This document shows positions 474-37,419 of a DNA stretch of 40,123 nucleotides, one piece after another. The position numbers and the translations under genes are program-made. Origin of the DNA: a virus; the IMG/VR virus record IMGVR_UViG_3300005529_000066, positions 1 to 40,123 of that record; one strand, written 5' to 3'. The notes below the pieces were generated by a model. The model made no database searches, was not told where the DNA came from, and was given only the letters and a program-made list of their open reading frames with translations. Position 1 is the first letter of the stretch. Each line of letters starts with the position of its first letter.

Positions 474-517
474 CCTCACTCACCCCTGACATCCCTGACA
501 TCCCAATAACAATCGCC

Positions 518-1423: not shown

Positions 1424-1462
1424 CTATCGCAACCTGTTAACCGCCACTGAGCAGGAACCGAA

Positions 1463-2893: not shown

Positions 2894-3108
2894 GCGTCTT
2901 CGTCGATTACCGGCACCTTCCTGAAAAGACGCGCAATGCACTGGTCGATCTCGAAATCTTCATCGGGGAGATGGACGGCAAGACCATCGGCACTCCGACT
3001 GATTCTAATACCTTTATCGACGAAGGCACGGTAGATGCCGACGACGCTGTGAAGGCGTTCAACGTGATTGTCGCCGCCCTGACCAGTGGTCAACAAAACC
3101 ATGAATGA
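2890..3108 (+). CDS. Hypothetical acidic protein, 72 aa
   Basis: ATGA overlap with the MTase stop. Coding-like codon usage. Confidence 0.55.
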   Translation: MSVFVDYRHLPEKTRNALVDLEIFIGEMDGKTIGTPTDSNTFIDEGTVDADDAVKAFNVIVAALTSGQQNHE

Positions 3109-3316
3109 CCTTGTTGTAACCGAAGGTATCTCGGGAACATGGTTCTATCACCTGTCCCACAACGCGCCGAAGCCGCAACAGCAGAGCGCCCTTTGCGGTG
3201 CGCGCGTGATGCACACGAACATGCCGCGCGACGCTTGGGGCACCGTGACCCATATCGGCGAACGCTGGTGCAAAAAATGCGAAGCGCTAGCACAATCGGG
3301 AGAGCCCCGTGAGTGA
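3101..3316 (+). CDS. Hypothetical protein, 71 aa (alternative GTG start 3086)
   Basis: ATG 3101 overlaps the upstream stop (ATGAATGA). CKKC pair near the C-terminus. Confidence 0.5.
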   Translation: MNDLVVTEGISGTWFYHLSHNAPKPQQQSALCGARVMHTNMPRDAWGTVTHIGERWCKKCEALAQSGEPRE

Positions 3317-3623
3317 CGCAGAAATGACTGATCCGAAAACCTGTAGTCCCCAGGCATGGAGCATCGCCAGCTTGTACAGCTCTGTACTCGGCGACTCTCA
3401 AGCGCGCGGCCTGGCTGAGTACATTGATGCCGCGCTCTCCGGCCTGCGCGCCGAGAATGAGCGGCTGACGGCAGCGCTCAAGAGTGCGAGCGCGCAGTGC
3501 GGAAACGTCATCTTCAATTGCGAGCAGCGGCCCGCGGACAATGCCCGGCACCTCTCATCGTGGCGCGGCGTCAAGGAATTCTGCGACGCGACCCTAAGCA
3601 TTCATGAGCGGGAATCGAAGTGA
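3309..3623 (+). CDS. Hypothetical protein, 104 aa
   Basis: GTG 3309 overlaps the end of the upstream gene. The central region looks coiled-coil. The stop overlaps the next GTG start. Confidence 0.5.
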   Translation: MSDAEMTDPKTCSPQAWSIASLYSSVLGDSQARGLAEYIDAALSGLRAENERLTAALKSASAQCGNVIFNCEQRPADNARHLSSWRGVKEFCDATLSIHERESK

Positions 3624-4171
3624 AGCTGAGCCGCACATGGGCGATGCCGTCGCCAGAGACGTTCTCGATCAAGCCGATCCGAGAGCTGATCGAGCGTTAT
3701 CTATCGGACGGCGTGTGGATTGATCCGTTCTGTCGAAACAGCGTCTTCAAGGGCGCCTGCGCCTACACTAACGACCTCAATCCGAAATTCGCCGGCACGC
3801 ACAACATGGACGCGCTCGATTTCCTCAAGTCCCTGCCGGCGGACAGCGTCGATGGCATCCTGTTCGATCCGCCGTTCTCCCCCAGACAGGTGGTGGAAGC
3901 CTATCAGGGCTTCGGGCCAGCCGACACGACGCGCCGCTTCTATAGCTCTCGCAAGCGCGAGGCTGCGCGGGTCCTGAAGATGGGTGGAATTGCGATTGTG
4001 TGCGGCTGGAATTCCCTGGGGCTCGGCGCAAAGAACGGAATGGAGCTCGAAGAGGTCTTGATGGTGAACCACGGCGACCAGAACGACACGATCGTCACGG
4101 TCGGTCGCAAGGTCGCGCCCAAGCTTGACTTCGCCGCGCCGGCTCAGCTCCCCGAATTGTTAACACCCTGA
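3620..4171 (+). CDS. Orphan amino (N6-adenine or N4-cytosine) DNA methyltransferase, 183 aa
   Basis: GTGA overlap with the upstream gene. An AdoMet-site-like IDPFCRNS is followed by a catalytic DPPF (ILFDPPFSPRQ, the motif IV family DPPY/F/W). The N-terminus TWAMPSPETFSIKPI is typical of small phage methylases. Target specificity is unknown. Confidence 0.7.
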   Translation: MKLSRTWAMPSPETFSIKPIRELIERYLSDGVWIDPFCRNSVFKGACAYTNDLNPKFAGTHNMDALDFLKSLPADSVDGILFDPPFSPRQVVEAYQGFGPADTTRRFYSSRKREAARVLKMGGIAIVCGWNSLGLGAKNGMELEEVLMVNHGDQNDTIVTVGRKVAPKLDFAAPAQLPELLTP

Positions 4172-4181
4172 GAGCAGGAAC

Positions 4182-4391
4182 ATGAGCGACTGGCGACCGA
4201 TCGAGACCGCGCCGAAGGACGGAAGCGACACCCTGCTCTACTGGCCCTTGGCCGGGGCGTCCGCAGATCGTCCCCGCATTAGGATCGGCTACTGGCGCGA
4301 TCCGCACGGCTGGGTTTGGCAGGATCGCGCGGTCCGAAGCTATTCGAGTTTCCCGACGCACTGGATGCCCCTCCCGGAGCCACCGCAATGA
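4182..4391 (+). CDS. DUF551-like phage protein, 69 aa
   Basis: MSDWRPIETAPKDG ... THWMPLPEPP pattern. RBS GAGCAGGA. The N-terminus is paralogous to the gene at 7440. Confidence 0.65.
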   Translation: MSDWRPIETAPKDGSDTLLYWPLAGASADRPRIRIGYWRDPHGWVWQDRAVRSYSSFPTHWMPLPEPPQ

Positions 4392-4672
4392 CCCCCGCCG
4401 CGCTCGAGCGCGAGAAGCCGCTCGCCAAGGACAAGCTATACGTCACCGACGCCGAGCTGATCCGGCTCATCGGAGCCCCGCGCGAGAAGACCCGAAAGAT
4501 GATCAACGCCTTGGACGCTATGCCGAATAGCGGCTTCCCGAAGAAAAACAAAATGTGGGGGGACAGAAGGCATTGGCCCTCTGTCAAAGCCTACTTTGAG
4601 CGCATGGAACAGCGTAGAATGGCGTCCTCATCCAATCAGCGGGGATCCCATGGCAGGCATGCCGAAGTTTGA
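4388..4672 (+). CDS. Putative excisionase / recombination directionality factor, 94 aa
   Basis: ATGA overlap with the upstream gene. It lies immediately 5' of int and overlaps its start. DKLYVTDAELIRLIG... looks like a DNA-binding helix. The call rests on position only. Confidence 0.4.
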   Translation: MTPAALEREKPLAKDKLYVTDAELIRLIGAPREKTRKMINALDAMPNSGFPKKNKMWGDRRHWPSVKAYFERMEQRRMASSSNQRGSHGRHAEV

Positions 4673-5876
4673 GAATGCGCCGGGGCTGAAGGTGCGCGCG
4701 AGCCGCACCGGAACGTTCGTCGCCTATTGGCTGGCGCGCGCGGACTGTGTCAAGCAGGGCTACAAGATGAAGTATTTCCCGCTCTGGAAGGGTGTTGATC
4801 CGACTCCAGAGGAGCGGCTGACCGTCTCCGAGGCGTGCGAGTCCCTACAGTACGAAATGCTCGCCTGGGCCGCTGGCGGCATCGACGGCGCATCGCACTT
4901 CAATGGAAGCGTGAGCAGCCTGATCTTCTGCTACACGCACGACAAGGACTCGCCGTTCAAGAAGCTGCGCTTCAAGTCGCGCAAGAACTACGCCGAATTC
5001 ATGAAGCGGATCGAGGCCGATCACGGCGACGAGTTCATCGCAAACCTCAAGGCGCGGGACATGCTGCGCTGGCACGCGGCATGGAAAGAGCGCGGCGTGA
5101 CGATGGCGCACTCACTGATGCGCATGTTTCGCGGGCTGCTGAGCTTCGGCATGACGATCCTCGATGACGAGCACTGCACGCACCTCTCAACGGTTCTCGG
5201 CAAGATGCGGTTCGAGATGGGCAAGCCGCGCACCGAGCGGCTGACCGCCGAGATGGCGAACGCCGTCCGAGCGCTCGCACACCAGAAGGGCTTGCACTCG
5301 ATCGCGCTCGCTCAGGCGTTCCAGTTTGAGGGGATGCTACGGCAGAAAGACGTGATTGGGAGCTGGGAGCCACTGACCGAGCCTGGCCCGTCTTTCGCGA
5401 CCTACCGAGACATGAAGTGGCATCGCGGCCTGCTGTGGTCCGAGATCGATGACAACCTGATCCTTCGCCACGTCACCAGCAAGCGGCAGAAGCCGATTGA
5501 GATCGACCTGAAGCTTGCGCCTATGGTGATCGAGGAATTCGACCGCATCCGCTCCGAGCTCGGCGCGCTCCCGAAGTTCGGACCAGTCGTGGTCTACGAG
5601 AGCACCGGCCGCCCCTACTCCGAGGAATACTTCCGCCAGTTCTGGCGCGAGATCGCGGACGAGTGCGGCATCCCCAAGACCGTGCGCAATCAGGACAGCC
5701 GAGCCGGCGCAATCAGCGAGGCGACCGATGCCGGCGTTCCGCTCGAGCACATCCGCCACGCGGCGACACACTCCGACATCGCGACCACGCAACGCTACTC
5801 GCGCGGCTCAGCGGAGAAGACCGCGACCGTGCTGACGATGCGCGCGGCGCACCGGAACAAAGGGGGAAACCAGTGA
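4650..5876 (+). CDS. int: Tyrosine recombinase / phage integrase
   Basis: C-terminal catalytic region RNQDSRAGAISEATDAGVPLEHIRHAATHSDIATTQRYSR (R...HxxR...Y signature). The start is ambiguous: TTG 4596, ATG 4650 or ATG 4659. Confidence 0.9.
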   Translation: MAGMPKFENAPGLKVRASRTGTFVAYWLARADCVKQGYKMKYFPLWKGVDPTPEERLTVSEACESLQYEMLAWAAGGIDGASHFNGSVSSLIFCYTHDKDSPFKKLRFKSRKNYAEFMKRIEADHGDEFIANLKARDMLRWHAAWKERGVTMAHSLMRMFRGLLSFGMTILDDEHCTHLSTVLGKMRFEMGKPRTERLTAEMANAVRALAHQKGLHSIALAQAFQFEGMLRQKDVIGSWEPLTEPGPSFATYRDMKWHRGLLWSEIDDNLILRHVTSKRQKPIEIDLKLAPMVIEEFDRIRSELGALPKFGPVVVYESTGRPYSEEYFRQFWREIADECGIPKTVRNQDSRAGAISEATDAGVPLEHIRHAATHSDIATTQRYSRGSAEKTATVLTMRAAHRNKGGNQ

Positions 5877-6071
5877 CGAGCCAAAACCGCGAACATGCGA
5901 TGGGTAGCAAATGGAGCAAGGCCGCTGACTATATGCTGGTATTCCAGTTTCTCTTGCTGATGACCAGTAAATTTTTTGTTGAAAGATTTCTAAGGGCTTG
6001 CTCCCCGTCGCGCTACCGATCCGCACCATCGCGTACCGACGTGACCGCCTCGTGCGGCGTGGAGGGGTGAG
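5877..6071. other. Candidate attP region
   Basis: A 195-bp gap lies directly 3' of int. It has a locally AT-rich core (about 5921-5995) in an otherwise >60% GC genome, and no coding-like ORF. This is the canonical attP position. The core sequence is not identifiable without the host attB. Confidence 0.35.
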
Positions 6072-6332
6072 ATGAAAGACCCAGCAATCCTGTTCTGCAA
6101 GCCGCAGGCGATCGACGATGCGAGCAAGGCGGCGCTGACCAAGGCCGGCGTGATCGTGGTTGAGGTCGCCGAGCCCCATGACGTGAAGCTCGTCCGACCG
6201 ATGGCCGATCTTCCAGGCTCAACGCTTCTGCGGATCGCAGCCGAGACGATCATGAAAAACGGGACTGACAGCACGCGCGAGCGGTTCGGTTGGCGCGTGT
6301 GCGAAGCCCTGACCACCGAGAAAGACGCCTGA
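6072..6332 (+). CDS. Hypothetical protein, 86 aa
   Basis: RBS GGAGGGG upstream of ATG 6072. Coding-like codon usage. Confidence 0.6.
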   Translation: MKDPAILFCKPQAIDDASKAALTKAGVIVVEVAEPHDVKLVRPMADLPGSTLLRIAAETIMKNGTDSTRERFGWRVCEALTTEKDA

Positions 6333-6348
6333 CAACAGGTTAGCAGGA

Positions 6349-6762
6349 ATGACATTCGCATCCAAAACCAAGGTCCCGGCCGAGCAGACGAAGACCGAGA
6401 TTGAGCGCACACTCAAGCGCTACGGCGCCGCACGCTTTGCCTACTTCACTGAACCCGACCGCGCGATCATTGTGTTCGAGGCGCATGAGCGGCGGCTGCG
6501 GTTCGATCTTCCGTTGCCGGCCGGCGAGACCGATCGGGAGATGCAGGTTGTCCGTGCGAAGTGGCGCGCGCTGCTGCTGTGCATCAAAGCCAAACTTGAG
6601 GCCGTTGAGAGCAAGATCGAGACGTTCGAGGAGGCATTCCTCGCTCATGTCGTCATGCCGGACGGCCGCACCGTTGCCGAACATGCGCAGCCGCGCATTG
6701 CATCCGCCTACGAGAGCGGCGAGGTGCAAGCTCTCTTGCCGCCGCCGAAGGGAAAATCATGA
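6349..6762 (+). CDS. Hypothetical prophage protein, 137 aa
   Basis: RBS AGCAGGA. Compact globular-looking sequence (…KWRALLLCIKAKLEAVESKIETFEEAFLAHVVMPDG…). Function unknown. Confidence 0.65.
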   Translation: MTFASKTKVPAEQTKTEIERTLKRYGAARFAYFTEPDRAIIVFEAHERRLRFDLPLPAGETDREMQVVRAKWRALLLCIKAKLEAVESKIETFEEAFLAHVVMPDGRTVAEHAQPRIASAYESGEVQALLPPPKGKS

Positions 6763-6968
6763 AGACGATCACAACCACCGGATTTGCTGGCGTGAACATT
6801 TGGACAGTGCCGCCGCACATCATGGCTTGGTCAACTCGCGGAACGGCTGGACAGGCTCGGAAGGCAGTCGCTGAAAACTGGCCCGACGGTGCGACCGAAG
6901 CCGAACGATGGAAAGCAGCATACCGCGCCGGGGTTCGCATTCGCAAAGTTCAGATCGCGACCCGCTAA
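6759..6968 (+). CDS. Hypothetical protein, 69 aa
   Basis: ATGA overlap with the upstream gene. Confidence 0.55.
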   Translation: MKTITTTGFAGVNIWTVPPHIMAWSTRGTAGQARKAVAENWPDGATEAERWKAAYRAGVRIRKVQIATR

Positions 6969-6983
6969 CCGGAGAGGTGAACC

Positions 6984-7412
6984 ATGAAAGCGATTTCGCT
7001 GTGGCAACCGTGGGCCTCACTCTGGCTCACCGACGCCAAGATCCATGAGACGCGGCACTGGCCGACCTCGCATCGCGGCTGGCTTCTCGTGCATGCCGCG
7101 AAGCGCCAGATCGACGATTACGACGGCGATCGGATTGACGAAATTTGCGAAGGCATCTGGGGCAACCATTGGGGCCAAGACCTGCCGCGTGGCGCACTGA
7201 TCGGCACGGTCAATCTCGTTGACTGCGTGCGCGTCGAGACCATGCCGGCCGGGCACCACGAAACGGACGACTACGAATGCGGCAACTTCGCAGACGGTCG
7301 CTATGCATGGCGGCGGGATGCATTCCGGTTATTCCAGCAGCCGATCCCATACCGCGGGCAGCAGGGCTTCTTCGAAGTTCCGGACGACATCCTGCCGAAG
7401 CTCGCAGCCTGA
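6984..7412 (+). CDS. ASCH (PUA-like) domain protein, 142 aa
   Basis: N-terminus MKAISLWQPWASLWLTDAKIHETRHWPTSHRGWLLVHAAK matches the ASCH pattern (S/L-xQPWAxLI..G.K..E.R.W.T..RG.LLIHA). RBS GGAGAGG. Confidence 0.8.
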   Translation: MKAISLWQPWASLWLTDAKIHETRHWPTSHRGWLLVHAAKRQIDDYDGDRIDEICEGIWGNHWGQDLPRGALIGTVNLVDCVRVETMPAGHHETDDYECGNFADGRYAWRRDAFRLFQQPIPYRGQQGFFEVPDDILPKLAA

Positions 7413-7439
7413 TTACTGTTACCGGGGAAGGAACCATAA

Positions 7440-7751
7440 ATGAGCGATTGGAAACCGATCGAGACCGCGCCCGAAAATCCGACTGTGCGCTATCTCGTGG
7501 TGGACTGCCTCGGGAACGTGACCCTCACTCAGCACCCGCGCGCTACGCTGATGCACGCGGGATGGGCAGAAGCGTGGGCGCCGGTCCCTGAGTGGATCAA
7601 ACCACAGCCGCCGATCGAACCCTATAGCCCACAGAAAGGCGGACGCGAGATCGCGGCGATGCACGCTCGGGAGTTCAAGCGTCTGGTGAAGGGCCACGGC
7701 ATCGCGCACGAGACGATCGAAGGCGTCAAGGTCGTGCGGTCGCAACGTTAA
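7440..7751 (+). CDS. DUF551-like phage protein, 103 aa (paralogue of 4182..4391)
   Basis: MSDWKPIETAPENP..., compared with MSDWRPIETAPKDG at 4182. RBS GGGGAAGGA. Confidence 0.6.
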   Translation: MSDWKPIETAPENPTVRYLVVDCLGNVTLTQHPRATLMHAGWAEAWAPVPEWIKPQPPIEPYSPQKGGREIAAMHAREFKRLVKGHGIAHETIEGVKVVRSQR

Positions 7752-7770
7752 TCAATCAGGAGCGATAAAG

Positions 7771-7968
7771 ATGGATGTTGTTCTTCCCGATCGAGAAACT
7801 GCGGTCAAACGTGGATGGACACATCAGGTCCAATGGATCGATGACGGCAAGCCGTGCTTCGTCCGATGCAGGTCAGGACGCGAAGCTGACGCGCGGGCCG
7901 ACAGGCTGAAAGCGATCGGCGCAAAGCCCGTCGTCTTCGATCTGCGCGACGCGCTGCAACTTCACTAG
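7771..7968 (+). CDS. Hypothetical protein, 65 aa
   Basis: RBS CAGGAG upstream of ATG 7771. Confidence 0.5.
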   Translation: MDVVLPDRETAVKRGWTHQVQWIDDGKPCFVRCRSGREADARADRLKAIGAKPVVFDLRDALQLH

Positions 7969-7991
7969 TTACTGCTCTCGAGGAGGTAGCC

Positions 7992-8189
7992 ATGAAAGAC
8001 GAACGCTATCCGCCGCCGTCGAAGCTGGACCCGGCCCTCAGGCTCCAGCGCATTGAGGAGAAGCTATGCGAGTGCAGTGCGGTTGGAAGCGGCGAAGGAC
8101 ATTCGTCCGATTGTCCAGCCAAGAAGTTCGACCGCATTCCGCGCAACATGACGGCCGCCGCGGCGCTGGCGCAGCTCGGCTATCGCTAA
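7992..8189 (+). CDS. Hypothetical protein, 65 aa
   Basis: RBS GAGGAGG upstream of ATG 7992. Its stop lies inside the left 16-bp direct repeat. Confidence 0.5.
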   Translation: MKDERYPPPSKLDPALRLQRIEEKLCECSAVGSGEGHSSDCPAKKFDRIPRNMTAAAALAQLGYR

Positions 8190-8197
8190 CTGCAAAT
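8182..8197 (+). repeat. Left copy of 16-bp direct repeat ATCGCTAACTGCAAAT
   Basis: 15/16 identical to 8572-8587. Contains the TAA stop of gene 7992..8189. Confidence 0.9.
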
Positions 8198-8571
8198 CAG
8201 GAACGCCGGGTGACACACCCAATCGCACGCACCGAACCGTTATGCTTCTGCCATGTGGACGGATACCCGAAGCCGGCGGCGACAAGAAGTTCAAGGTGGT
8301 CGCGGGCGGCGAGCTCTAAGGAGAGAACATGTTCAGCGGAGCGGAGTCGAAGGGAAGCCCGGTAAATGAGAAAACCCGTGGCCCCGCGCCTTCGCGCTAC
8401 AGCAGGGGGCGGCTACGCCCGACAGGGAAGCGGCATAGCGGCCAAGGCATGGTCATCACGACCATGCCTTTGCTGCGCGGCGAACTTCTCGGATGTCGGC
8501 TACGTCGCAAAGCCGCAGTGGAGCCCGACCGGCCATCGCGCTTCGCACCCTCCGGCTCTGCTCCGCTGAGC
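8198..8571. mobile_element. Putative secondary insertion (MITE-like element or structured-RNA moron) between duplicated gene-junction sequences
   Basis: Flanked by the 16-bp direct repeats. All forward frames have visibly poorer GC3 (~70% by my count) and rare codons. Contains a long inverted repeat and hairpins. Confidence 0.4.
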
Positions 8572-8573
8572 AT
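8329..8573 (+). ncRNA. Inverted-repeat-bounded ~245-nt module; candidate structured RNA (alternatively TIRs of a MITE, or ORF 8329..8589, 86 aa)
   Basis: 8333-8354 pairs with 8548-8569 over 22 positions: 19 WC, 2 GU and 1 mismatch. The helix can be extended to 8329/8573. There is an internal perfect 11-bp hairpin at 8444-8470. The RBS+ATG TAAGGAGAGAACATG (8317-8331) would be partly sequestered. Confidence 0.3.
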
Positions 8574-8587
8574 CGTTAACTGCAAAT
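8572..8587 (+). repeat. Right copy of 16-bp direct repeat ATCGTTAACTGCAAAT
   Basis: 15/16 identical to 8182-8197. Supplies the first 2 nt (AT) of the ATG (8586-8588) of the next gene. Confidence 0.9.
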
Positions 8588-8816
8588 GAAGGATAATGAC
8601 GCCATGACGAAACTTCGCGAAGGTGAAAGCTACTCGCACGAAGGCCCGGAATGTCCGAAGTGCGGCTTCACCTTCATGCCCGACGACTCGATCTACTACG
8701 ACGAGAACCGCTACACCGAGGAGACGTGCCAGGAGTGCCAGACAAAATTCAAGGTTGAGGTCTACCACTCCACGAGCTGGACCTGCACGATCCCCGAACC
8801 GGCTGCGGCTGGTTAA
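8586..8816 (+). CDS. Zinc-ribbon protein, 76 aa
   Basis: CPKCG ... CQECQ pairs. Coding-like codon usage. Confidence 0.6.
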   Translation: MKDNDAMTKLREGESYSHEGPECPKCGFTFMPDDSIYYDENRYTEETCQECQTKFKVEVYHSTSWTCTIPEPAAAG

Positions 8817-8840
8817 GCCTCAGGAAACAGGGAGAGCGAT

Positions 8841-9026
8841 ATGCTAGACGCCGCATGGATGCACCGCGATGAGCGCCCGCTCGGCACGCGGCTGAGCGAT
8901 ATGAAGGCGCATGCCGAGCACTGTCGGCGCGAGGCTGTCCGCATGGAGCGCGAGGCGTCGCGCCTTCGCAACGAAGCGAACGAGACTGAGCGGCAGATCG
9001 AAAATCTGCGGCGCGCTCATAGTTAG
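8841..9026 (+). CDS. Hypothetical coiled-coil protein, 61 aa
   Basis: RBS GGGAGAG upstream of ATG 8841. Confidence 0.5.
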   Translation: MLDAAWMHRDERPLGTRLSDMKAHAEHCRREAVRMEREASRLRNEANETERQIENLRRAHS

Positions 9027-9241
9027 ATAGAGTCGAACCGATGGTATGGAAGACGAAACGCGGGAAGTGGGACTGGCGCAGATTCCTCACCGCGGAAGAG
9101 GCGTCGCTGATCCGTGCTGCCGATCGTGGTGGCGCGAAGAAACAGCGCCGTGACCCGTCCGGCCGGTGACACCGCACATAGTTCCCATCCCTGCGCCAGC
9201 GCCGGCATCAGCGCGAATACCAGGGCGAGCGCGCGGATCAT
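9023..9241 (-). CDS. Small secreted protein, 72 aa (last gene of lysis cassette)
   Basis: ATG 9241 in ATGA overlap with the stop of 9238..9594. N-terminus MIRALALVFALMPALA/QG looks like a Sec signal peptide. GC3 falls off in the distal half. Confidence 0.4.
   Translation of the reverse strand: MIRALALVFALMPALAQGWELCAVSPAGRVTALFLRATTIGSTDQRRLFRGEESAPVPLPAFRLPYHRFDSI
9041..9169 (+). CDS. Possible small ORF, 42 aa (MVWKTKRGKWDWRRFLTAEEASLIRAADRGGAKKQRRDPSGR)
   Basis: ATG 9041 to TGA 9167-9169. Below the track threshold. Overlaps the convergent minus ORF 9023..9241, so at most one of the two is likely real. Confidence 0.25.
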   Translation: MVWKTKRGKWDWRRFLTAEEASLIRAADRGGAKKQRRDPSGR

Positions 9242-9594
9242 GGGTGCGGCCTCATCGTCGCCCACTCGGCTAGCTTGCCGCCGACGTACACCACAAGCCC
9301 GCCAACAACGCCGGCCGCCGTATAGAGCCAGCCAGCAAGGCGCGCGGCGCCTCGAGCTTCTGCCCGCTTCTCCCGATAGTCATCCGTCAGCGGCTTCATC
9401 TCGGCGATATCGCGGGCGACGTTGCGCATGGCCTCGCTAGTCGCCACCACGATATCATGGACCTTGCGATGCTCCTCCGTGCTGGCTTCCTGAAGCCTGT
9501 GAAAATCTTCGCGCAGGTTCTCAACTTCGGCCTGCAAGATGCCGATGGCGACGAAGAGTCGGTTTTCCTCTACGGCCATCAGGGCGCTTCCCAT
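9238..9594 (-). CDS. Coiled-coil protein with C-terminal transmembrane anchor, 118 aa (lysis-cassette associated)
   Basis: Helical N-terminal part. C-terminal TM segment LAGWLYTAAGVVGGLVVYVGG. RBS AAAGGAG upstream. Confidence 0.6.
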   Translation of the reverse strand: MGSALMAVEENRLFVAIGILQAEVENLREDFHRLQEASTEEHRKVHDIVVATSEAMRNVARDIAEMKPLTDDYREKRAEARGAARLAGWLYTAAGVVGGLVVYVGGKLAEWATMRPHP

Positions 9595-9716
9595 TGACGT
9601 TGACGCTCCTTTAACGGCGCGCAGTTAGCCTGTGATATAGCCATTGCTTGTTGCCCCAAGCGACAAGTTGTGGTCAGGCTCGGCGGCGTGTTGGTCGCAC
9701 GTCGCCGGGCCGCTCG

Positions 9717-10128: not shown

Positions 10129-10476
10129 TTAAACCTTCGGCCGCAGCCGAGCCCAAATGGTCAGAGCCGAGAATGCCATCGCGGCGATCATAACGTTCGT
10201 GGGCGTGAAGTAAGCCGAGATGAAACCATTCGCCTTGGCCGCAAATTCCGGATCACCGGAAAGGGTGGCGATCAGGTCGGTCCCCTTTCCGAGCGCAACT
10301 CCGACAGCGCTGACCAGGATCGTCACCTTCTGCAGCAGAATGACCTGCATGCCGCGCTCGGCGGCGACTATGCGCTGCCATGTCGTTCCGGTCGCGGCGC
10401 GGTATCGGACATAAAATCCGATACCGACCCACAGAACGACGGCGGCGGCGGCCAGAGTGAATGCAAGGCTGATCAT
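10129..10476 (-). CDS. Multi-pass membrane protein, holin candidate, 115 aa
   Basis: ATG 10476 in ATGA overlap with the lysozyme stop. About three hydrophobic helices (MISLAFTLAAAAVVLWVGIGFYV...; ...NVMIAAMAFSALTIW). The upstream part of track ORF 10129..10740 is out-of-frame overlap with the lysozyme gene. Confidence 0.6.
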   Translation of the reverse strand: MISLAFTLAAAAVVLWVGIGFYVRYRAATGTTWQRIVAAERGMQVILLQKVTILVSAVGVALGKGTDLIATLSGDPEFAAKANGFISAYFTPTNVMIAAMAFSALTIWARLRPKV

Positions 10477-11006
10477 GTTTTCCTCGCGAATATGGACAGG
10501 ATTGCGGAGAGCCAGCCCGACGGCGGCGCCGGCTGCGGAGATGGTTTCGGCTCGAGTGGCGGGGGCGGCGGAAAGACGTAAGGCGTCTTGAACTGAGCAA
10601 CCTCGCCGCGGCGCCGCCCTAGGATTTCCGGTGGCTTGCTCCACATCAGGAAGGCGTCGGCCGCGCCGGCCATGTCGACCGAATTGATGCGCTTGGCGAC
10701 GGTCGAGCGAGAGAAGCCGGACGGGCCAATGTTGTAGCAAAGGCTCACGCAGGCATCGAACTGGTTTTGGCTGAGTGGCACCTTAACGGCGCTGTTCACC
10801 GCCGTCTCGTATTTCACGAGGTCGAGCGCGAAAATCTCGTCGCATTCGGCCTGCGTGATGGTCAGGCCGGGAGTTACTTCGGGAGGTCCGGCCGAGCTAG
10901 TGTGACCTACCCCGATCGTAAGGACACCCACGGAATCGCGATAGGCTTTGAGCCTAACCCCTTCGCGCGCCATGAGCCGCTTACGGCCTTCATCGCTCGT
11001 CTTCAT
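10473..11006 (-). CDS. Phage lysozyme (GH24-type endolysin) with Pro-rich linker and hydrophobic C-terminal tail
   Basis: EGVRLKAYRDSVGVLTIGVGHT catalytic-region motif. ATG 11006 in ATGA overlap with the upstream gene (alternative GTG 11015). C-terminus PPPPPLEPKPSPQPAPPSGWLSAILSIFARKT. Confidence 0.9.
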   Translation of the reverse strand: MKTSDEGRKRLMAREGVRLKAYRDSVGVLTIGVGHTSSAGPPEVTPGLTITQAECDEIFALDLVKYETAVNSAVKVPLSQNQFDACVSLCYNIGPSGFSRSTVAKRINSVDMAGAADAFLMWSKPPEILGRRRGEVAQFKTPYVFPPPPPLEPKPSPQPAPPSGWLSAILSIFARKT

Positions 11007-11200
11007 CGCAAACACGCCCTCGCCTGGCGGATCATCTTCCGCGTGACGTGGTACTTGCGAATGAGATCGCGTTGCGCCTTCGCCGAAGCAAGTCGAAGTA
11101 CGGGAGCCATCTGCCGCACCGTCTCACACGAAACGGGAAGGTCAGACCCCGCCCATGACGCGGGCGACACAAGCAACAGCAGCACAAGGGCGCGGATCAT
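11003..11200 (-). CDS. Small secreted protein, 65 aa
   Basis: ATG 11200 overlaps the fibre-gene stop (TGATG). Signal-peptide-like MIRALVLLLLVSPASWA/GSD. Confidence 0.55.
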   Translation of the reverse strand: MIRALVLLLLVSPASWAGSDLPVSCETVRQMAPVLRLASAKAQRDLIRKYHVTRKMIRQARACLR

Positions 11201-14336: not shown

Positions 14337-14384
14337 GCCGAATTGATATTCAGGTTTAGGAAACTAGGTCAATGCACTGATCAA
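14337..14384 (-). promoter_or_regulatory. Late promoter module, copy 1
   Basis: The minus strand reads TTGATCAGTGCATTGACC-N18-TATCAA-TTCGGC. The -35 is at 14367-14372 and the -10 at 14343-14348. It is 41/48 identical to 28082-28129 and lies upstream of ATG 14313. Confidence 0.6.
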
Positions 14385-25700: not shown

Positions 25701-26708
25701 TCAGATCGGCAGGAAGTTGAGCCCGTCAATCTTCTGGTGCGCCTTGCACTTGACGTTGACGAGCTGGATGAGAGTGACGACGGCGCCGAGGTAGCCAAGC
25801 TGGCCGTTGACCAGCGTGGATTCGAAGCCGGTGAACGAAAACGCGGCCTTCTCGCCGATGTAGGCCGAGAGGTAATTCGTGTTGATGAGGTAGAGCGTAC
25901 CCTCGGGGCAGTACGGGTCCGGGTAGAACGGCACGCCGGCCACGTCGAGCGCTTCGAACAGCGCTTCCACCTTCGTGTCGCCGAACGATTGGGTCGGCGT
26001 GACGACGTAGCGCTCGCTCGACGTGAAGTCCTGCGCGAGGTTCGCCCAGGTGCCAAAGCCCATCAGACCTATCACCGGCTTTTCGCCCGTGACCTTGGTG
26101 CACTGCGCGATGTACTGCAGCATCAGGTTGCGGGTCGGCGCGACCGTGCCGCCGTTGTGGACGTAGGTCGACTTCCAGAACGTGTTCGACGAGCGCGTGA
26201 TGCCGCCGTAGGTCGCCGCGAACGTGCCGTCGTCGATCGCGGCCGGCAGGCCCACCATCGACTGCGTGTTGGAGATGTTGTTGTAGATGTCGGTCGCGAA
26301 ACGATCGAGCGTGACGTTGGTCACGTCGTTCATGCGCGCCTCGATCAGCGGCACCACCGAGTAGTCCAGCTGCACCATGCCCTCGAGGCCGAGGAACGGG
26401 ATCGCCGAGAGATAGCCCGCCAGGTTGAACTCGGCGTTCTGCAGTCCCGGAATGGTGCCCGGCTGGTTGAACGATCCGTCGTAGCCGATGTTCTGGATCG
26501 TCACCATCGGGTTGCCCTGCAGGGGCACCGTGATCGGCGAGAGGCCACCGCTCGCGACCTGCGCGTGAGCGAGGATCGCCGCCATGAAGGGCGTCGACTT
26601 CCACAGCTGCACGTACACCTTCGGCAGGAAGGCGCGACGAGTGACGGCGGCAAGCTCGGATGCGATCGAGCTCTGGGCCGGAACGATTCCACTGCCAAAC
26701 TGCGGCAT
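25701..26708 (-). CDS. Major capsid protein, 335 aa
   Basis: RBS AAGGAGA. Follows the scaffold-like gene. Size and composition are typical of HK97-fold MCPs. Its antisense ORFs in the track are Arg-rich shadows. Confidence 0.75.
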   Translation of the reverse strand: MPQFGSGIVPAQSSIASELAAVTRRAFLPKVYVQLWKSTPFMAAILAHAQVASGGLSPITVPLQGNPMVTIQNIGYDGSFNQPGTIPGLQNAEFNLAGYLSAIPFLGLEGMVQLDYSVVPLIEARMNDVTNVTLDRFATDIYNNISNTQSMVGLPAAIDDGTFAATYGGITRSSNTFWKSTYVHNGGTVAPTRNLMLQYIAQCTKVTGEKPVIGLMGFGTWANLAQDFTSSERYVVTPTQSFGDTKVEALFEALDVAGVPFYPDPYCPEGTLYLINTNYLSAYIGEKAAFSFTGFESTLVNGQLGYLGAVVTLIQLVNVKCKAHQKIDGLNFLPI

Positions 26709-28081: not shown

Positions 28082-28129
28082 GCCGAATTGATATTCACCT
28101 TTAAGAATGAAGGTCAATGCACTGATCAG
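28082..28129 (-). promoter_or_regulatory. Late promoter module, copy 2
   Basis: The minus strand reads CTGATCAGTGCATTGACC-N18-TATCAA-TTCGGC. The -35 is at 28112-28117 and the -10 at 28088-28093. It sits immediately after the terminator. Confidence 0.6.
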
Positions 28130-28339: not shown

Positions 28340-28387
28340 TCCGATGATAAATCGGTTGAGCGATCAATTACAATGCACTGATCACTA
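28340..28387 (-). promoter_or_regulatory. Late promoter module, copy 3
   Basis: The minus strand reads GTGATCAGTGCATTGTAA-N18-TATCAT. The -35 is at 28368-28373 and the -10 at 28344-28349. It overlaps the portal stop codon. Confidence 0.5.
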
Positions 28388-30094
28388 AGCCGCTTTCTCC
28401 TTCTTGCCGCGCTGCTCCGGCACCTGACCGGCAGCGCGCGCCGCCTGCAGCGCCTTCATCCGCGCGCGAAGCGCGTGGATCATGTTGTCGGCGTTCGGCG
28501 GGTTCATCATGCGGATGAACATCTCCTGATCGATCGCCTGTGCCTTCAAGAGCGCGCCGGCCAGTTCCTTCGACTCGTCGGCAAACAGCGGCGAGTGCGA
28601 GTGGCCGGCAATCCGCATCTTCCAGCCGTCCGGCAGCTGCGCGAGCAAGAACTCCTGCCCCATGTCGGACTTCAGCTTCGTGTCGTCGTTCTTCGCCTTC
28701 AGCTTCATCCCGATGTCGCCGAGCTTCACCAGCGACTGCTCTAGCCCGACGCCGACTTTGCGGATGCGCGACGATCCGGTGGTCGCTAGTTGCTTCGCGT
28801 GTCCGCGCCCGCGCACCCCGGATTCGCCCTTGCCGGTGACAGTTTCCGTCAGGCCCGACGCCTCGAGGAAAATCTGGCCGATCTGATTGAACTCGGCGAA
28901 CAGGTCTTCCGGCATCTTCGGCGCTAGCGTGTCCACCTTCGCCTGCGTGTTCATTGGTTCGATCACCCACGAGCCCGGACCGCCGAGCGCCGACGCCTTC
29001 TCGTCGGCGAGACCCATGAAGCCCGCGAACACCTTCGCGGGGTCAACCTGCCGCTCCAGAATGTCGGCGATCTGGTCAAGCCGCTCGTTCGACCAGCGCT
29101 GCAGCGGTATCAGCCGCTCGATGTGCGCCTCGCCCCAGAAATATTCCGGCAGCGGGTACGGCGTGATCGGAACGAACGGATGCTCATCGGGGAGGAACAG
29201 GTTGGAGTGTGACCCCCATTTCCCGGCGATTTTGTCCGGAACGTCCTTCGCCATCTTATCGACCGTCTCGCGCGAGTCCGCGATCACAATCCCCGGCTCG
29301 ACCATCACAAACGTCGCGTAGTCCTCCGCGATGTCGTCCCATATCCACACCTCGGTGAACTCCGCGCCGGGCGCATCGCTCATCGGCTCGTAGGTGGGCT
29401 TGGGCTCGTAGTCGAGCGGCACCGACCCCACGACCGGGCCGGACAGGTTCGCGCCGCCGGTCTGCGAAATCTCCATCATATGCGCCAGCACCGGCGGGTA
29501 GTCGCTGGTCTTTGGCCCATGCACGAGACTGAGCTTCGGCAGCAAGTCCTTCTGGCCGGCGCGCACCAGGCGCAACACCGTGTTGTCCCAGTCGAGCGTA
29601 TAGCGATGGGCGAACGCCTCTTGGCTGTCGATGTCGGGCTCCGACTCGTCGAACACGCCGAACGACGACGGCAACACCGTGCGGCCGAAAAGCTCATCGC
29701 GCTCGCTGTTCCATCCGAGCTTGAGGAACATCGTATCGTAGACGAGCGACCAAGGTAGGGCGTTGCCGTAGGCGGTGCCAAGACCGCTGTCGCGGAACGT
29801 GTCGTTCCATTCCTCCTCGGCGGCGAGCGTCTGCTTGATCACCGCCTCGTCCGAGTTGCGCGGTGCCGAGATCGAGTACCGCGCGTGATCCTCGGCAAAC
29901 AGGAACGACGCAACGAGATCGGTGTGCGCGTACAGTCGATTGTAGCGAACCGTCTCTTGGCCGTAGGTGCCGTAGAGAAAGTAGCGCTTGCGCCGGTCGT
30001 AGATTTTCTTGCGGTCCTCATTGGACTGCATGCAAACGTCGGCGACCCACTTCACCTTTTCGTCGCGCTTCTTCGGATCACGGGGGATGATCAT
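28385..30094 (-). CDS. Portal protein, 569 aa
   Basis: Size and position: downstream of terL and upstream of scaffold/MCP. ATGA overlap with the upstream gene. No named motif verified. Confidence 0.7.
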   Translation of the reverse strand: MIIPRDPKKRDEKVKWVADVCMQSNEDRKKIYDRRKRYFLYGTYGQETVRYNRLYAHTDLVASFLFAEDHARYSISAPRNSDEAVIKQTLAAEEEWNDTFRDSGLGTAYGNALPWSLVYDTMFLKLGWNSERDELFGRTVLPSSFGVFDESEPDIDSQEAFAHRYTLDWDNTVLRLVRAGQKDLLPKLSLVHGPKTSDYPPVLAHMMEISQTGGANLSGPVVGSVPLDYEPKPTYEPMSDAPGAEFTEVWIWDDIAEDYATFVMVEPGIVIADSRETVDKMAKDVPDKIAGKWGSHSNLFLPDEHPFVPITPYPLPEYFWGEAHIERLIPLQRWSNERLDQIADILERQVDPAKVFAGFMGLADEKASALGGPGSWVIEPMNTQAKVDTLAPKMPEDLFAEFNQIGQIFLEASGLTETVTGKGESGVRGRGHAKQLATTGSSRIRKVGVGLEQSLVKLGDIGMKLKAKNDDTKLKSDMGQEFLLAQLPDGWKMRIAGHSHSPLFADESKELAGALLKAQAIDQEMFIRMMNPPNADNMIHALRARMKALQAARAAGQVPEQRGKKEKAA

Positions 30095-30594: not shown

Positions 30595-30890
30595 CAGATC
30601 ACCCTCGTTGCTGCGCCTTCCACATTCCACGTCTGCCCGTGCCGCACGAACTTCAGCTTGCCGTTGCGGATCGCCATGATCGCATCGGATAGCGGCACGA
30701 TCCGGCGCTTGGGTATGCGTCCGTAGAAGATATAGCGGTGAAGACATTCGCGCCGGATGCCCAGATAGTCGGACAGCCCCTTGATCGGCACCCGACCGCG
30801 GCCGGTGTTGTCGATGTCGTGCGGGTCGTAGCGGTAGCGTTTGAGTTCGCGCACGATCTCAGCTTCCGGGAGAGCAATTGCCCCTGTCAT
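30594..30890 (-). CDS. Hypothetical protein with HTH-like segment, 98 aa
   Basis: ATG 30890 in ATGA overlap with the terL stop. IKGLSDYLGIRRECLHRYI segment. Confidence 0.55.
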   Translation of the reverse strand: MTGAIALPEAEIVRELKRYRYDPHDIDNTGRGRVPIKGLSDYLGIRRECLHRYIFYGRIPKRRIVPLSDAIMAIRNGKLKFVRHGQTWNVEGAATRVI

Positions 30891-32770
30891 TGCATCGGCA
30901 CCCCAATTTTCACGGTCTTCAGGTAGTTGATCGCCATGTCCTCGAGCTGCTTCTGCGTCTTGTTCATTTGCCGCTCGCCATCCCGCATCGCTTTCGCAAG
31001 CGTAAGGCCCTGCATCATCAGCTTGGGCTGAACCCAGCGCTTCCATGCCTCATGCGCGAGCGCGGCGCCGATCACGCGATCGTCGTGCCCCCTGCCCTGC
31101 GCGTGGATCTGGCCCTCCTCGGTGACGATCGACTTCATTTCCTCGAGGCAGTAGAGGGATCGTATCTTGATCAGCTGTAGGTCAAACGAGTCCTTGAAGC
31201 GGTTCATCAAGGGCGCCTTGGTCGAGGCGTTGGTCTGCCAGTGAAAGAAGCCCTGCCCCGACGACATCGAGTCCGGCCGACGATAGATGAAATATCTGAT
31301 CTGCTGCAGGCACGAGCGCACGCTCGCGCCGCCCTGGTGCTCCTCGCCGTCCGGCACGGTCAGCATCTGCTGCGCCTTCATGCGCAACTCGTCGAGCTCG
31401 CCCAGCACTGCCTTGCCCGGACCGTTCGTCTCGAGGTTCACCATCACGTTGCGATAGAGGCCGGAAAGATGCGCCAGCACCCAGGCGCAGTGGTAGGTCG
31501 ACGCGATCGACGAACAGAACTCGGCCACCTGATACTGGCAATCCGCAAAGCAGCGGAACACGCTGATCACGTTGCGGTCGGCCTCGTCGCTCGATCCATA
31601 TGACGGGTCACAGCCGATCGTGTAATGACCCTCGGGATCAGGAAATTCCCACACCTTCAGGTCGGCGCGCTTCGCGTCCTTGAGCGCCACGCACTCGGTC
31701 TCGTTCCACTGGCGCGTCAGGATGTAACGGAACGGCCGGAACGCCGAACCGCGAGCAATCCGCATCGCGTCGGTCAGGCTCTCGTTGGTGAAGAATTTCG
31801 AGCCCGTCGCCACGAATGCGTCTTCCGGCATCCATGGGAACATCTCGTCCATCTTCATTTGGTCGCCGTCGCACTCCTCATCGAGCTTCCAGCGATACCA
31901 GGCTATCTGCTCGGGGGTGATCGTGAAGCCGTAGGTTTCCTTCACCATCCGCGCGCGTTTGCGTTCGAGCGGCGTCAGCGTCGTGTCGCGTCCGTCCGGC
32001 ATGTAGATCGGGAAATACGGGTGCGTCTGCGCGTAGGCGTAGTGATCGTGGCGCCACCAGCCCACGAAAATAGCCCGCTGCGTCGGACTGTCGACCGCCT
32101 TCTCCCACATCTCCTGGAAGTGGTTGAAGCCGTTAGCCGTCGTCTCATAGACCTGCAGCCGGTGCGGGTAGTGCGTCGACAGCGTCGCCCGCAATTCCTT
32201 GAGGTCTTCCTCGTCGCCCCAGAACGCTACCTCGGTTGCGTGCAGGAAGTTGCTCGCGCCCGACCGGCCGAGCCCGGCCTTCGTCTTCTTCTTCACCCCG
32301 GCCACGAGATAGCGGAATAGCGAACTGTTCTTGAGGATCAGCATCGAGCGGTTGTGCTTCTCGTAGCCGATCCGAAACCCCTTCGGCAGGTTCGCGAACA
32401 GCACCTCGATGATGTTGCGGAACTGCTCGCGCGACTGCTCGTCGTGCGTCGCGAACGAACCCGCAAGCCCGCGGTGCTCCATCGCCCAGAAGATGTCCAG
32501 CACCACAAAGAACGTCGAAATCCCCAGCTGCCGCGCCTTCAGGATCACAAACGTCGTGCACCCCTCGGCCAGCCCTTTGCAGATCTCGTTGAGGATGTAG
32601 ATCTGCGTCCCCAGCATCTCGAGCGGCATCAGCCCGAAGTCCTTGGTGAGGATCTTCACCTTCGAACAGAACTTCAGAAACCGCTCGCGCGGGAACGGTG
32701 CAACCCCCATCGCCGGAGCCGGCTCGATCATCTCCCCCTCAAGCGGAAGGTCCGGCGCGATCTCCTCCAT
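30887..32770 (-). CDS. terL: Terminase large subunit, ~627 aa
   Basis: Walker-A-like ILKARQLGIST, Walker-B/catalytic LHATEVAFW, coupling motif YETTANG. ATG 32770 was chosen because the 56-codon upstream extension in the track (to 32938) has poor GC3 and a Gly-rich nonsense-like sequence. Confidence 0.9.
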   Translation of the reverse strand: MEEIAPDLPLEGEMIEPAPAMGVAPFPRERFLKFCSKVKILTKDFGLMPLEMLGTQIYILNEICKGLAEGCTTFVILKARQLGISTFFVVLDIFWAMEHRGLAGSFATHDEQSREQFRNIIEVLFANLPKGFRIGYEKHNRSMLILKNSSLFRYLVAGVKKKTKAGLGRSGASNFLHATEVAFWGDEEDLKELRATLSTHYPHRLQVYETTANGFNHFQEMWEKAVDSPTQRAIFVGWWRHDHYAYAQTHPYFPIYMPDGRDTTLTPLERKRARMVKETYGFTITPEQIAWYRWKLDEECDGDQMKMDEMFPWMPEDAFVATGSKFFTNESLTDAMRIARGSAFRPFRYILTRQWNETECVALKDAKRADLKVWEFPDPEGHYTIGCDPSYGSSDEADRNVISVFRCFADCQYQVAEFCSSIASTYHCAWVLAHLSGLYRNVMVNLETNGPGKAVLGELDELRMKAQQMLTVPDGEEHQGGASVRSCLQQIRYFIYRRPDSMSSGQGFFHWQTNASTKAPLMNRFKDSFDLQLIKIRSLYCLEEMKSIVTEEGQIHAQGRGHDDRVIGAALAHEAWKRWVQPKLMMQGLTLAKAMRDGERQMNKTQKQLEDMAINYLKTVKIGVPMQ

Positions 32771-33473
32771 CACACCACCCCCAGGAATCCGTACCCAGGC
32801 CGCGGCGCGTGACACTCCGGACAGAACCACCGCCCGCCGAGCGCCCACCTCTGGAAATGCCACCCGCGACGCACCGGCAGCCCAGCCCGAAACCGCGCCG
32901 ATACCGCCCCGAAAACACGATCCAACAAAGTCGGGCAAAATCGCGCCGAACAGCGCGCACAGCGGACTTGTGTGCCAACCTCAAACACAGACCAAGCCCC
33001 TGACAGACATCATATTTTTTTCTGGGGTGGGGGCCGTGGGGGGCGCCTTTCTCACTGCCTTGAGGACCCATCGGCTGAGCGCGCCCGCGCGCGCCGTGGG
33101 GCCAATCGGGGACCATTGTGGAAAAACCGTATTAATGTCAGAGGGTTGCCTGTGTCTACTAACACCTTGGTTCATCGTGCGGCGGCGCAGCAAATACGCT
33201 TGCGCCTGGCTATCCGATCGCAAAGCCATTGAAATCATTGGGTTTCCGGTTAAGAGCCTGTTAACCGCCCATGAGCAGGAGATCCGATGGGGGCTTAGTC
33301 GGCCGGTCAGGGGCTGGTCCGCCCCGCTTCTGACACCCGCGTTGTTGGCCTGCTCGGTTGGCTGCCTTGTGCTTGTCGTCCGCTCTATGGCGGACTGGAT
33401 TGAGCGGCCAGAGGTGCGCGGGGAACGGCTTGTGAGGGAGCCGCGCGCGAGGAGGCGGTGCTGATTGTGCGAT

Positions 33474-33536
33474 GTCAATGCACTGATCCATGATGCTGTT
33501 ATCATTGGCGTATCGACGATTTTCCGATCAGTGCAT
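33474..33536. repeat. Inverted pair of the promoter-box sequence (ATGCACTGATC ... GATCAGTGCAT), 37-nt spacer
   Basis: 33478-33488 and 33526-33536 are exact reverse complements. The left copy continues as TTGACA on the minus strand, but no -10 follows it. Confidence 0.85.
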
Positions 33537-33541
33537 GTAAC

Positions 33542-33550
33542 ATTATAACA
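33542..33550 (-). promoter_or_regulatory. Extended -10 promoter element (TGTTATAAT) facing the late region
   Basis: The minus strand reads TGtTATAAT, a perfect -10 with the TGn extension, just upstream of the inverted pair. No convincing -35. Confidence 0.4.
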
Positions 33551-33575: not shown

Positions 33576-33794
33576 CTATGCCTCGCTCTCGGTGATGAAG
33601 GCGTGCAGGTCGCGTGCGAGCTTAACGAGGTCGTCGCCGTGGCAGTTGAGGCTCGCGGCGGCCTGGATTGCCTTCTCGACTGCGTAGGTACGTGTCGCGC
33701 GATCGGCGGCCTTGACCTGCTGCTGCTGCACGGTGGTGATGCGTTGGTCTGCTGCCTCGAGGGCGGCCTGCTGTTCTACTTCGGTCAGCGCCAT
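33576..33794 (-). CDS. Hypothetical coiled-coil protein, 72 aa
   Basis: RBS AGGAGG upstream of ATG 33794. The track start at 33866 overlaps the upstream gene. Confidence 0.6.
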   Translation of the reverse strand: MALTEVEQQAALEAADQRITTVQQQQVKAADRATRTYAVEKAIQAAASLNCHGDDLVKLARDLHAFITESEA

Positions 33795-35342: not shown

Positions 35343-35792
35343 TCAAGCGTGCGTGCTTTCGCTCCGATACGCGATGGCGTGATGAGCGGCGCAATACGAG
35401 ACGCCGTCGGCGATGATCTCTCCGCAGAACAGGAAATGCGCTTCCCCGTAAGGGAAACGGCACTGGTTGGCGCACATGTGCTCAAGGTCGACGCTGCCTT
35501 GCGCCGGCGCGTCCGGAGCCGGGACGCACTCGAATTGCGTCGCCGCACGTTTGCGTGAACGCGGTTGCCAGCCGCGCTTGTTGCCGGTGCGATTGGAGAG
35601 GCCGAGCCGCGCGAGCTTGCCGGACACGACGCCGCGCGAGTTGAGGCCGAGCTCGCCGCAGATTTCAGCCTGCGACCATCCGGCGGACCAAAGCTCTTTC
35701 AGCCGCTCGACGCGCTCCGGCGTCCATGTGTCCCATTCGTGCGCCGGGCGCTGTCCCTGCGTGCGGGGCGGTAGATCAACGGTGTCGGTCAT
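35343..35792 (-). CDS. gcrA: GcrA cell-cycle regulator homologue, 149 aa
   Basis: WTPERVERLKELWSAGWSQAEICGELGLNSRGVVSGKLARLGLSNR N-terminal domain. C-terminal CRFPYGE..FLFCGE....SYCAAHHAIAY. This is the canonical GcrA architecture. Confidence 0.9.
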   Translation of the reverse strand: MTDTVDLPPRTQGQRPAHEWDTWTPERVERLKELWSAGWSQAEICGELGLNSRGVVSGKLARLGLSNRTGNKRGWQPRSRKRAATQFECVPAPDAPAQGSVDLEHMCANQCRFPYGEAHFLFCGEIIADGVSYCAAHHAIAYRSESTHA

Positions 35793-37390: not shown

Positions 37391-37419
37391 TTGACTTATT
37401 CGCAAGGTGCGAATTATAT
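37391..37419 (+). promoter_or_regulatory. Early-right promoter with operator O3 in the spacer
   Basis: TTGACT (37391-37396) - 17 nt - TTATAT (37414-37419). The spacer holds ATTCGCAAGGTGCGAAT (37398-37414). Same architecture as the early-left promoter. Confidence 0.65.

Follow-up and report, generated by a model that had tools for sequence, protein, structure and literature searches.

Paired copies of a late-promoter box at the early/late junction of an uncharacterised temperate phage, a possible DNA-level control node

Genome context of the junction

The stretch of DNA analyzed here (the window, 40,123 nucleotides) is nearly the whole of one 40,142-bp contig in a genome assembly of 5.6 Mb. 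The ends of the contig lie inside a Gly-Tyr repeat gene, and its break is thus an assembly artefact. The phage that it carries is temperate. Protein-family scans (Pfam and PHROGs, applied to the 39 open reading frames of the window) identified the integrase, structural, lysis, and putative regulatory genes listed in Table 1. The early-left genes occupy the minus strand from approximately 36089 down to 33576, and the late genes, which lie on the minus strand as well, run from 32773 down to approximately 9238. The last early-left gene stops at 33576-33578, and the inverted repeat studied here is located exactly at this early/late junction, as a first-pass annotation of the window had stated.

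No close phage has been characterised: the best match of the large terminase subunit (TerL) in the phage collection is 41% identical and belongs to uncultured phages, and no closer relatives by DNA were found among 400 family genomes, the phage collection, and the genome contigs. TerL searches led to five related contigs with identities of 62-77% (L037, L038/L039, L040, and L009), the nearest TerL being 77% identical, and a sixth related fragment, L041, was found through the neighbouring small gene of the 72-aa family described below. The comparison covers five or six related uncultured phages, which are not independent of one another. They have a common plan, in which the early genes are followed by a gap of 0.7-1.8 kb and then by terL and the portal gene; past the portal gene come a promoter, a micro-gene, a terminator, a second promoter, and then the head genes.

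The clade is comprised of uncharacterised, temperate, podovirus-like phages, whose hosts are probably alphaproteobacteria, judging from the presence of a GcrA-like gene and from how few GANTC sites there are. An integrated copy of an L038-type phage was observed terminally in a chromosomal contig of 1.3 Mb (L044, positions 1-9700), where it adjoins genes for an aminotransferase, homoserine dehydrogenase, GlpX, and RecJ; this integrated copy confirms that the clade is temperate.

Table 1. Features of the window and of its early/late junction (window coordinates).
Feature	Coordinates	Strand	Remarks
Integrase	4596-5876	+	protein-family scans
HTH repressor-like gene		+	protein-family scans
Rad52		+	protein-family scans
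Lysozyme	10473-11015	-	protein-family scans
Site 4, complete late promoter	14343-14382	-	box, TTGACC, 18-nt spacer, TATCAA; precedes 659-aa fibre-like gene
Major capsid protein	25701-26708	-	protein-family scans
Site 3, complete late promoter	28088-28127	-	box, TTGACC, 18-nt spacer, TATCAA
Site 2, complete late promoter	28344-28383	-	box, TTGTAA, 18-nt spacer, TATCAT; directly past portal stop
Portal, SU10-like	28385-30094	-	protein-family scans
Terminase large subunit (terL)	30887-32773	-	protein-family scans
terL leader, untranslated, ~0.7-0.8 kb	32774-33472	-	negative coding scores
Conserved non-coding block in leader	33016-33094		alignment; long invariant runs in five phages
C-rich, G-poor start of leader RNA	33350-33472	-	C/G 1.8-2.1; rut-like
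CACAAT, -10-like hexamer (A at position 2, T at position 6)	33464-33469	-	3 bp past TTGACA
Site 1: left box GATCAGTGCAT fused to consensus -35 TTGACA	33473-33488	-	points left; clade-conserved
Left arm ATGCACTGATC	33478-33488	+	plus-strand letters
P_B, extended -10-like TGTTATCAT	33497-33505	+	points right, faces P_D
Right arm = right box GATCAGTGCAT	33526-33536	+	points right; phage-specific
P_D, perfect extended -10 TGTTATAAT	33542-33550	-	points left to terL; poor -35 (TCGTGT)
Palindrome TTCGTGTACGAA	33560-33571		covers -35/spacer region of P_D
Last early-left gene, 72 aa	33576-33794	-	RBS AGGAGG and ATG; +0.30 bits per codon
GcrA-like protein	35343-35792	-	protein-family scans

The late-promoter box and its copies

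The junction carries an exact 11-nt inverted repeat with 37 nt between its arms, and every coordinate given for it in the first-pass annotation agrees with the sequence; the centres of the arms are 48 bp apart. The bare repeat is unremarkable: the window has 22 inverted pairs of 10 nt or more with both arms within 80 nt, this one among them, and another pair just as good occurs inside the capsid gene. What raises it beyond chance is that its arm is the late-promoter box of the phage, as had also been recognised: the same 11-mer is found at 14372, 28117, and 28373. In total, the box has five exact copies in the 40-kb contig, all of them intergenic, and only three in the remaining 5.58 Mb of the genome.

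The three copies outside the junction, all on the minus strand, consist of GATCAGTGCAT followed by a -35 (TTGACC or TTGTAA), an 18-nt spacer, and a -10 (TATCAA or TATCAT); one of them, site 3, comes after an intrinsic terminator at 28160-28140. At these complete promoters, the box spans approximately -46 to -36, with its centre near -41. Class II activators, such as lambda cI at PRM, bind around this promoter position. Since the box is fused to conserved -35/N18/-10 modules at three copies, it appears to be a DNA promoter element placed near -41, and the late -10 sequences (TATCAA), which lack the T at -7, together with the 18-bp spacers, fit a dependence on an activator. The promoter module, including its spacer and -10 region, is kept across the relatives. 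The box itself varies slightly between phages around a core of ATCAG, four variable bases, and TTG. It is asymmetric, without dyad symmetry, so that the two regulator dimers previously proposed to bind the repeat are not indicated. Sites 2 and 3 of L040 read CATCAG, and GATC itself is thus not required; methylation of GATC as a readout was rejected on account of these two sites.

The host genome lacks such a promoter class. Its other GATCAG-N4-TTGAC matches have no -10 module and look like coding sequence, for which reason a host promoter class or a host factor site was discarded. A copy of the box with one mismatch (ATGCACTGGTC) was also observed at 2936-2946 on the plus strand of the window, in the gap past a C5-methyltransferase gene; its minus-strand reading continues into TTGCGC, and approximately 0.6 such matches are expected by chance.

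With regard to the two copies at the junction, the left one adjoins a perfect TTGACA on the minus strand (33478 to 33473), and the earlier remark that no -10 follows at the proper distance is borne out, the hexamers 16-18 nt past TTGACA being GCCTCC, CCTCCT, and CTCCTC. The right copy has the T-rich upstream flank of strong late promoters, a degenerate -35 (ATGTAA), and no -10; it shares the flank of the strongest late promoter (ATTTTC, one base, and the box) and diverges from it directly after the box. Neither copy is followed, 16-19 nt past the -35, by a hexamer whose second and sixth letters are A and T, and a fixed distance between box and -10 is found at 28383, 28127, and 14382. The inner mini-hairpin described earlier between the arms is present in imperfect form (CCATGAT at 33488-33494 and ATCATTGG at 33501-33508).

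The left copy corresponds to a site (site 1) that is conserved in the clade. A single box with a near-consensus -35 occurs at the early/late junction of L038 (9178, TTGACT), L040 (4176, TTGACA), L009 (5269, TTGACT), and L041 (GTGACA), directly past the last early gene or genes and approximately 0.7-0.8 kb before terL. Site 1 is absent in L037, and the TATCAA module is absent 16-19 nt past site 1 in L038, L040, L009, and L041. The -35 of site 1 is consistently better than that of site 2 (TTGTAA in the window, TTGCGT in L037), which suggests selection for contact with sigma region 4. A sigma70-like -10 was detected 7-13 nt upstream of the box in L038 (TTCGCA-17-TATCAA), L009 (TG-C-AAGAAT), and L041 (TTGTGC-17-TAGAAT), and the box would begin at about +2 to +8 of the predicted promoter. 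These elements score only 8-9 of 12-14 and lie in AT-rich DNA, and L040 has none. The equivalent in the window is the perfect TGTTATAAT, located 45 bp farther upstream owing to the segment that holds the right copy. No relative carries, within 300 nt, its own box in inverted copy, and the right copy is confined to the window phage, being absent in all five relatives. L040 contains a direct copy with one mismatch (GATGAGCACAT, then TGTCG) at 4324-4339, 148 nt past its site 1, so that the leader of at least one relative likewise holds two boxes, there in direct orientation.

The perfect extended -10 noticed on the minus strand just upstream of the right copy, running from 33550 to 33542, was confirmed. 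Elements of this kind are rare, with TGNTATAAT occurring 10 times in the 5.6 Mb and once in the phage. The element, named P_D here, is predicted to be a sigma70 promoter heading the late unit, with a +1 near 33535-33536, inside the right box. Counted from a start at about 33535, the right box, inverted, would occupy +1 to +10, and the left box with TTGACA +48 to +63. A second extended -10-like element, P_B, faces P_D from the spacer; its predicted +1 lies near 33512, which would place the right box at +15 to +25 and the left box at -34 to -24. The two elements form a second inverted pair that is interleaved with the pair of boxes.

The only other TATAAT in the phage, at 37413-37418 on the minus strand, overlaps the third immunity operator (ATTCGCA-N3-TGCGAAT), a placement that fits the use of an E. 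coli-like sigma70 consensus by the host. The palindrome upstream of P_D is unique in the window and may represent either an operator or a weak hairpin with which the early transcript ends. Its half-sites resemble those of the immunity operators, with a different spacing; on the grounds of this spacing and the single occurrence, a site for the immunity repressor was rejected. It was also observed that the predicted leftward RNA would open with AUG CAC UGA (33528-33536, minus strand), a leaderless two-codon start-stop reading frame that is built into the box sequence. The head promoter of L037 has an ATG 7 nt past its -10, and leaderless messages may thus be used in the clade.

Candidate regulators and readings of the junction

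The 72-aa product of the last early-left gene is the only early protein common to every box-bearing phage. Its family (72-89 aa) has six members only, in a search of 5.8 billion proteins, all of them in box-carrying phages, and the homologues in L037, L038, L040, L009, and L041 are invariably encoded last in the early operon. In the AF2 model, the protein forms a two-helix hairpin (pLDDT 87), for which no Pfam match and no PDB fold match was obtained, the fold search being uninformative. By position only, its place mimicking that of lambda Q, this product is a candidate for the late regulator. Scans of the 39 window ORFs against Pfam and PHROGs returned no late activator of the Mor/C or Ogr/Delta type, and the early-left proteins match no Q/AlpA antiterminator family in the same collections.

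A GcrA-like protein is encoded in the window, L040, and L009, and was not seen in the portion of L038 examined. In L037 (803-1147), the closest relative, the protein aligns only from residue 62 of its window counterpart, the usual N-terminal part being seemingly missing, and this phage keeps its head-promoter boxes despite the apparent shortening. One box-less relative, 91% complete, has neither the GcrA-like gene nor the boxes. GcrA of Caulobacter recognises methylated GANTC located near -20 or between +2 and +30 (PMC4647560), a range that does not fit a box at -41. The right copy would lie at +1 to +10 of P_D, yet the box has GATC, not GANTC.

Our preferred reading, held tentatively, is that the site is a DNA-level node, in which paired sites for a late-box factor would tie the terL/portal unit to late control. 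We infer the binding of a factor, the activity of the promoters, and the sign of any effect from the sequence elements, their rarity, and their conservation. Briefly, the left copy would be a docking site, conserved in the clade, for the late factor together with sigma70 region 4; it would hold the binding half of a late promoter and not the melting half, and would be placed just downstream of a sigma70-type promoter. The right copy would be an extra site, specific to this lineage, over the start point of P_D. Both copies would be bound by a single putative phage factor, the one acting from about -41 at the head and fibre promoters. At the right copy this factor would occlude or gate the leftward promoter, and at the left copy it would hold factor and polymerase at the entry to the leader, so that the terL-portal unit and the read-through from the early operon would be tied to the late regulator. 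The right copy keeps all 11 bases of the box (11/11) and the T-rich flank of strong late promoters, which speaks for a DNA element. No relative has an inverted copy, and hence there is no conserved RNA hairpin; most simply, the hairpin is a by-product of two opposed box copies.

Several points weigh against such a node. It is counter-intuitive for a late activator to occlude the promoter that feeds terL; a half-promoter without a -10 has no established operator function; and the right copy could be a neutral scar. Moreover, the boxes are 48 bp apart, or approximately 4.6 helical turns, and would thus lie on nearly opposite faces of the helix, where cooperative binding is not favoured. If the reading is true, it would show how an uncharacterised phage clade turns on DNA packaging. 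A box with a consensus -35 and no -10, located just past a promoter, fits neither the textbook activator nor the Q model, and the approximately 110 bp concerned form a small, concrete target for finding the late regulator, marking the likely start of the late transcript and the bases to mutate.

The first-pass annotation had regarded the site as the possible master of late control. The head and fibre units have complete box promoters of their own at 28383, 28127, and 14382, and a single master site is therefore rejected in favour of a distributed control as in Mu and P2. Like the systems of Mu C and P2/P4 Ogr/Delta, the phage has a short phage-specific box at a fixed place by or over the -35 of several late promoters, sub-optimal core elements, and control spread over several transcription units. 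It differs from this class in its asymmetric box and in the absence of a detected Mor/C or Ogr homologue. It also differs in that site 1 has a box and a consensus -35 without a -10 downstream of another promoter, over whose start point the second box of the window lies inverted. For the geometry of the box, lambda cI at PRM serves as a class II model in which sigma region 4 is contacted.

Two further systems offer partial parallels. The P1 C1 operators are asymmetric 17-bp sites scattered over the genome, some of which form inverted pairs known as 'bivalent' operators. The box is likewise a scattered asymmetric site with one locus where an inverted pair overlaps a promoter. However, the P1 sites belong to the immunity repressor, whereas the window phage has separate palindromic immunity operators at 36.8-37.4 kb, and its box promoters look activator-dependent, not repressed. 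The late activator p4 of phi29 also represses early promoters from differently placed sites, which are inverted repeats, and acts together with protein p6. As with p4, a single factor could combine activation from about -41 with repression, or with a hold on polymerase, at or past the start; unlike p4, no similarity to the window phage in sequence or protein exists.

The analogy with the PR'-qut-tR' region of lambdoid phages, also raised previously, stands in part. The lambdoid Q cassette is composed of the Q gene, PR', the QBE, a sigma-dependent pause element, and tR' (PMC9388147), with sigma region 4 repositioned beside a -10-like element. The junction matches this layout in its position just past a small conserved gene in the place of the regulator gene, in a strong promoter-like element (a sigma70 promoter by prediction) accompanied by box copies, in an asymmetric DNA site beside a -35-like hexamer that sigma region 4 could occupy, and in a long stretch to cross before the late genes. 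A Q-like loading, in which polymerase started at P_D would be captured by a box-bound factor through sigma region 4 on TTGACA and, once modified, would cross the untranslated C-rich leader, a putative zone of Rho-dependent termination, to reach terL, is nonetheless unlikely. The consensus -35 without a melting element beside the box, the CACAAT 3 bp past TTGACA, and a GAAAAT at +13 to +18 of P_D are what such loading would use, and CACAAT is a possible sigma-dependent pause element. In L041, CACCAT stands at the position of CACAAT, but the other relatives do not keep the hexamer, the -10-like element past TTGAC being absent in L038 and L040 and weak in L009. The pause element is thus not conserved, no protein of a Q family is present, and the other late units have promoters of their own, three ordinary ones with the same box upstream of the start, a placement not known for Q-type sites.

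The leader bears on the same reading. None of its six frames scores as coding (-0.23 to -0.9 bits per codon, as against +0.3 to +0.46 for real genes), there is no GC3 signal, the relatives have no protein homologues, and the 0.7 kb are accordingly untranslated, as the loading would have it. Its first 120 nt past TTGACA have C/G ratios of 2.1 and 1.8, late coding windows reaching at most 1.94, and the tract is suggestive of a Rho loading (rut) site. At the same place, L040 has a C-rich tract with a ratio of 2.5-3.5, so that values of 1.8-3.5 are found right past site 1 in these two phages; the tract is weaker in L009, but absent in L038. The terminator-like structure of the lambdoid model is also missing: a terminator scan of 32773-33535 gave no convincing intrinsic terminator, only a weak 5-pair stem at 32934-32922.

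It is similarly improbable that the left copy alone works and that the right one is a recent, functionless inverted duplication at an early/packaging mosaic junction, derived from the upstream half of a late promoter. The absence of the right copy in all five relatives would be expected in this case, as would its identity to site 3, which takes in 7 nt ahead of the box and ends abruptly on the downstream side, and boxes lie at module boundaries, where recombination between phages is expected. On the other hand, all 11 bases of the copy are intact, it falls exactly on the start point of a very rare perfect extended -10, and a single duplication would not easily give rise to the interleaved inverted pair of -10-like elements.

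The predicted hairpin at the repeat (-19.3 kcal/mol, z = -2.1) raises the question of an RNA element, which we regard as quite improbable. In this case, a transcript from about 33535, or early RNA reading through, would carry an 11-bp stem closing a structured loop, and the stem would stabilise the terL leader, serve as a cleavage site for RNase III, or be the target of an RNA-binding antiterminator. The stem would stand at the very 5' end of the predicted transcript, and 5' stem-loops are known to stabilise mRNAs. However, it is conserved in no relative, where no inverted copy exists, and the earlier suggestion of a hairpin read by an antiterminator is not upheld; its arms are explained by a DNA element that recurs three more times without a partner. 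Furthermore, 4 of 200 shuffles fold as well, Rfam gave no match in the leader or at the hairpin, and no U-tract follows the stem, which continues into UGACAUCG on the minus strand and GUAACAUU on the plus strand and is hence not an intrinsic terminator. The fold of the whole leader is no better than that of shuffled sequences (z = -0.06), and with no Rfam family a structured leader RNA was rejected.

P_D and P_B may form a face-to-face pair of promoters with start points approximately 23 bp apart. An interference switch between them, with a rightward RNA running antisense to the early-left operon and with boxes through which the late factor would pick the winner, is distinctly unlikely. Convergent promoter switches are known in P2 and 186. 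The two elements are the only TGTTATMAT sequences in the window, 45 bp apart in opposite orientation, and each -10 has a box downstream in direct orientation. Against this, TGTTATCAT is a single 9-mer in an AT-rich spacer, the rightward element is found in no relative, and neither a product nor a terminator is apparent for the rightward RNA.

Very improbable is a factor with two functions, an initiation activator at about -41 of the head and fibre promoters that would also load onto already started polymerase at the junction, by way of sigma region 4 docked on the TTGACA, and confer resistance to termination, with opposed loading sites leading to terL in one direction and to antisense shutoff of the early operon in the other. 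The plus-strand ORF at 33129-33464 and the minus-strand leader ORFs are non-coding, having negative coding scores and no homologues, so that the repeat does not lie between convergent genes; a convergent-gene terminator was thus discarded, as were an attP, in view of the 28 kb to the integrase gene and the lack of a tRNA in the window, and an invertible promoter switch, a segment of 37 bp being too short to be inverted by a recombinase.

Conserved and recurrent elements of the terL leader

Approximately 250 nt upstream of terL, the leader contains a conserved block with GCGCGCG, CCGATGGGTC, GGCGCC, a C-run, and an A-run, whose counterparts are located at about 3630-3715 in L037, 9680-9760 in L038, 4550-4630 in L040, and 5630-5710 in L009. 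No covariation was detected within the block, which is probably the packaging (cos/pac) site of a clade without a recognisable small terminase.

Other recurrent elements were observed in the leaders. In L038, a hairpin motif composed of GTTCC, a 7-nt loop, and GGAAC occurs twice (9090-9115 and 9545-9570), once directly past the last early gene and again 450 nt downstream; at the equivalent of the first position, the window reads GTTCG-TGTA-CGAA. The last 150-200 nt before terL are G/T-rich (C/G 0.3-0.5) in the window (32780-32960), L038 (9850-9950), and L040 (4740-4800), and short T-tracts similar to TTTTGC recur there every 10-13 bp, which could represent phased bending or terminase-binding repeats.
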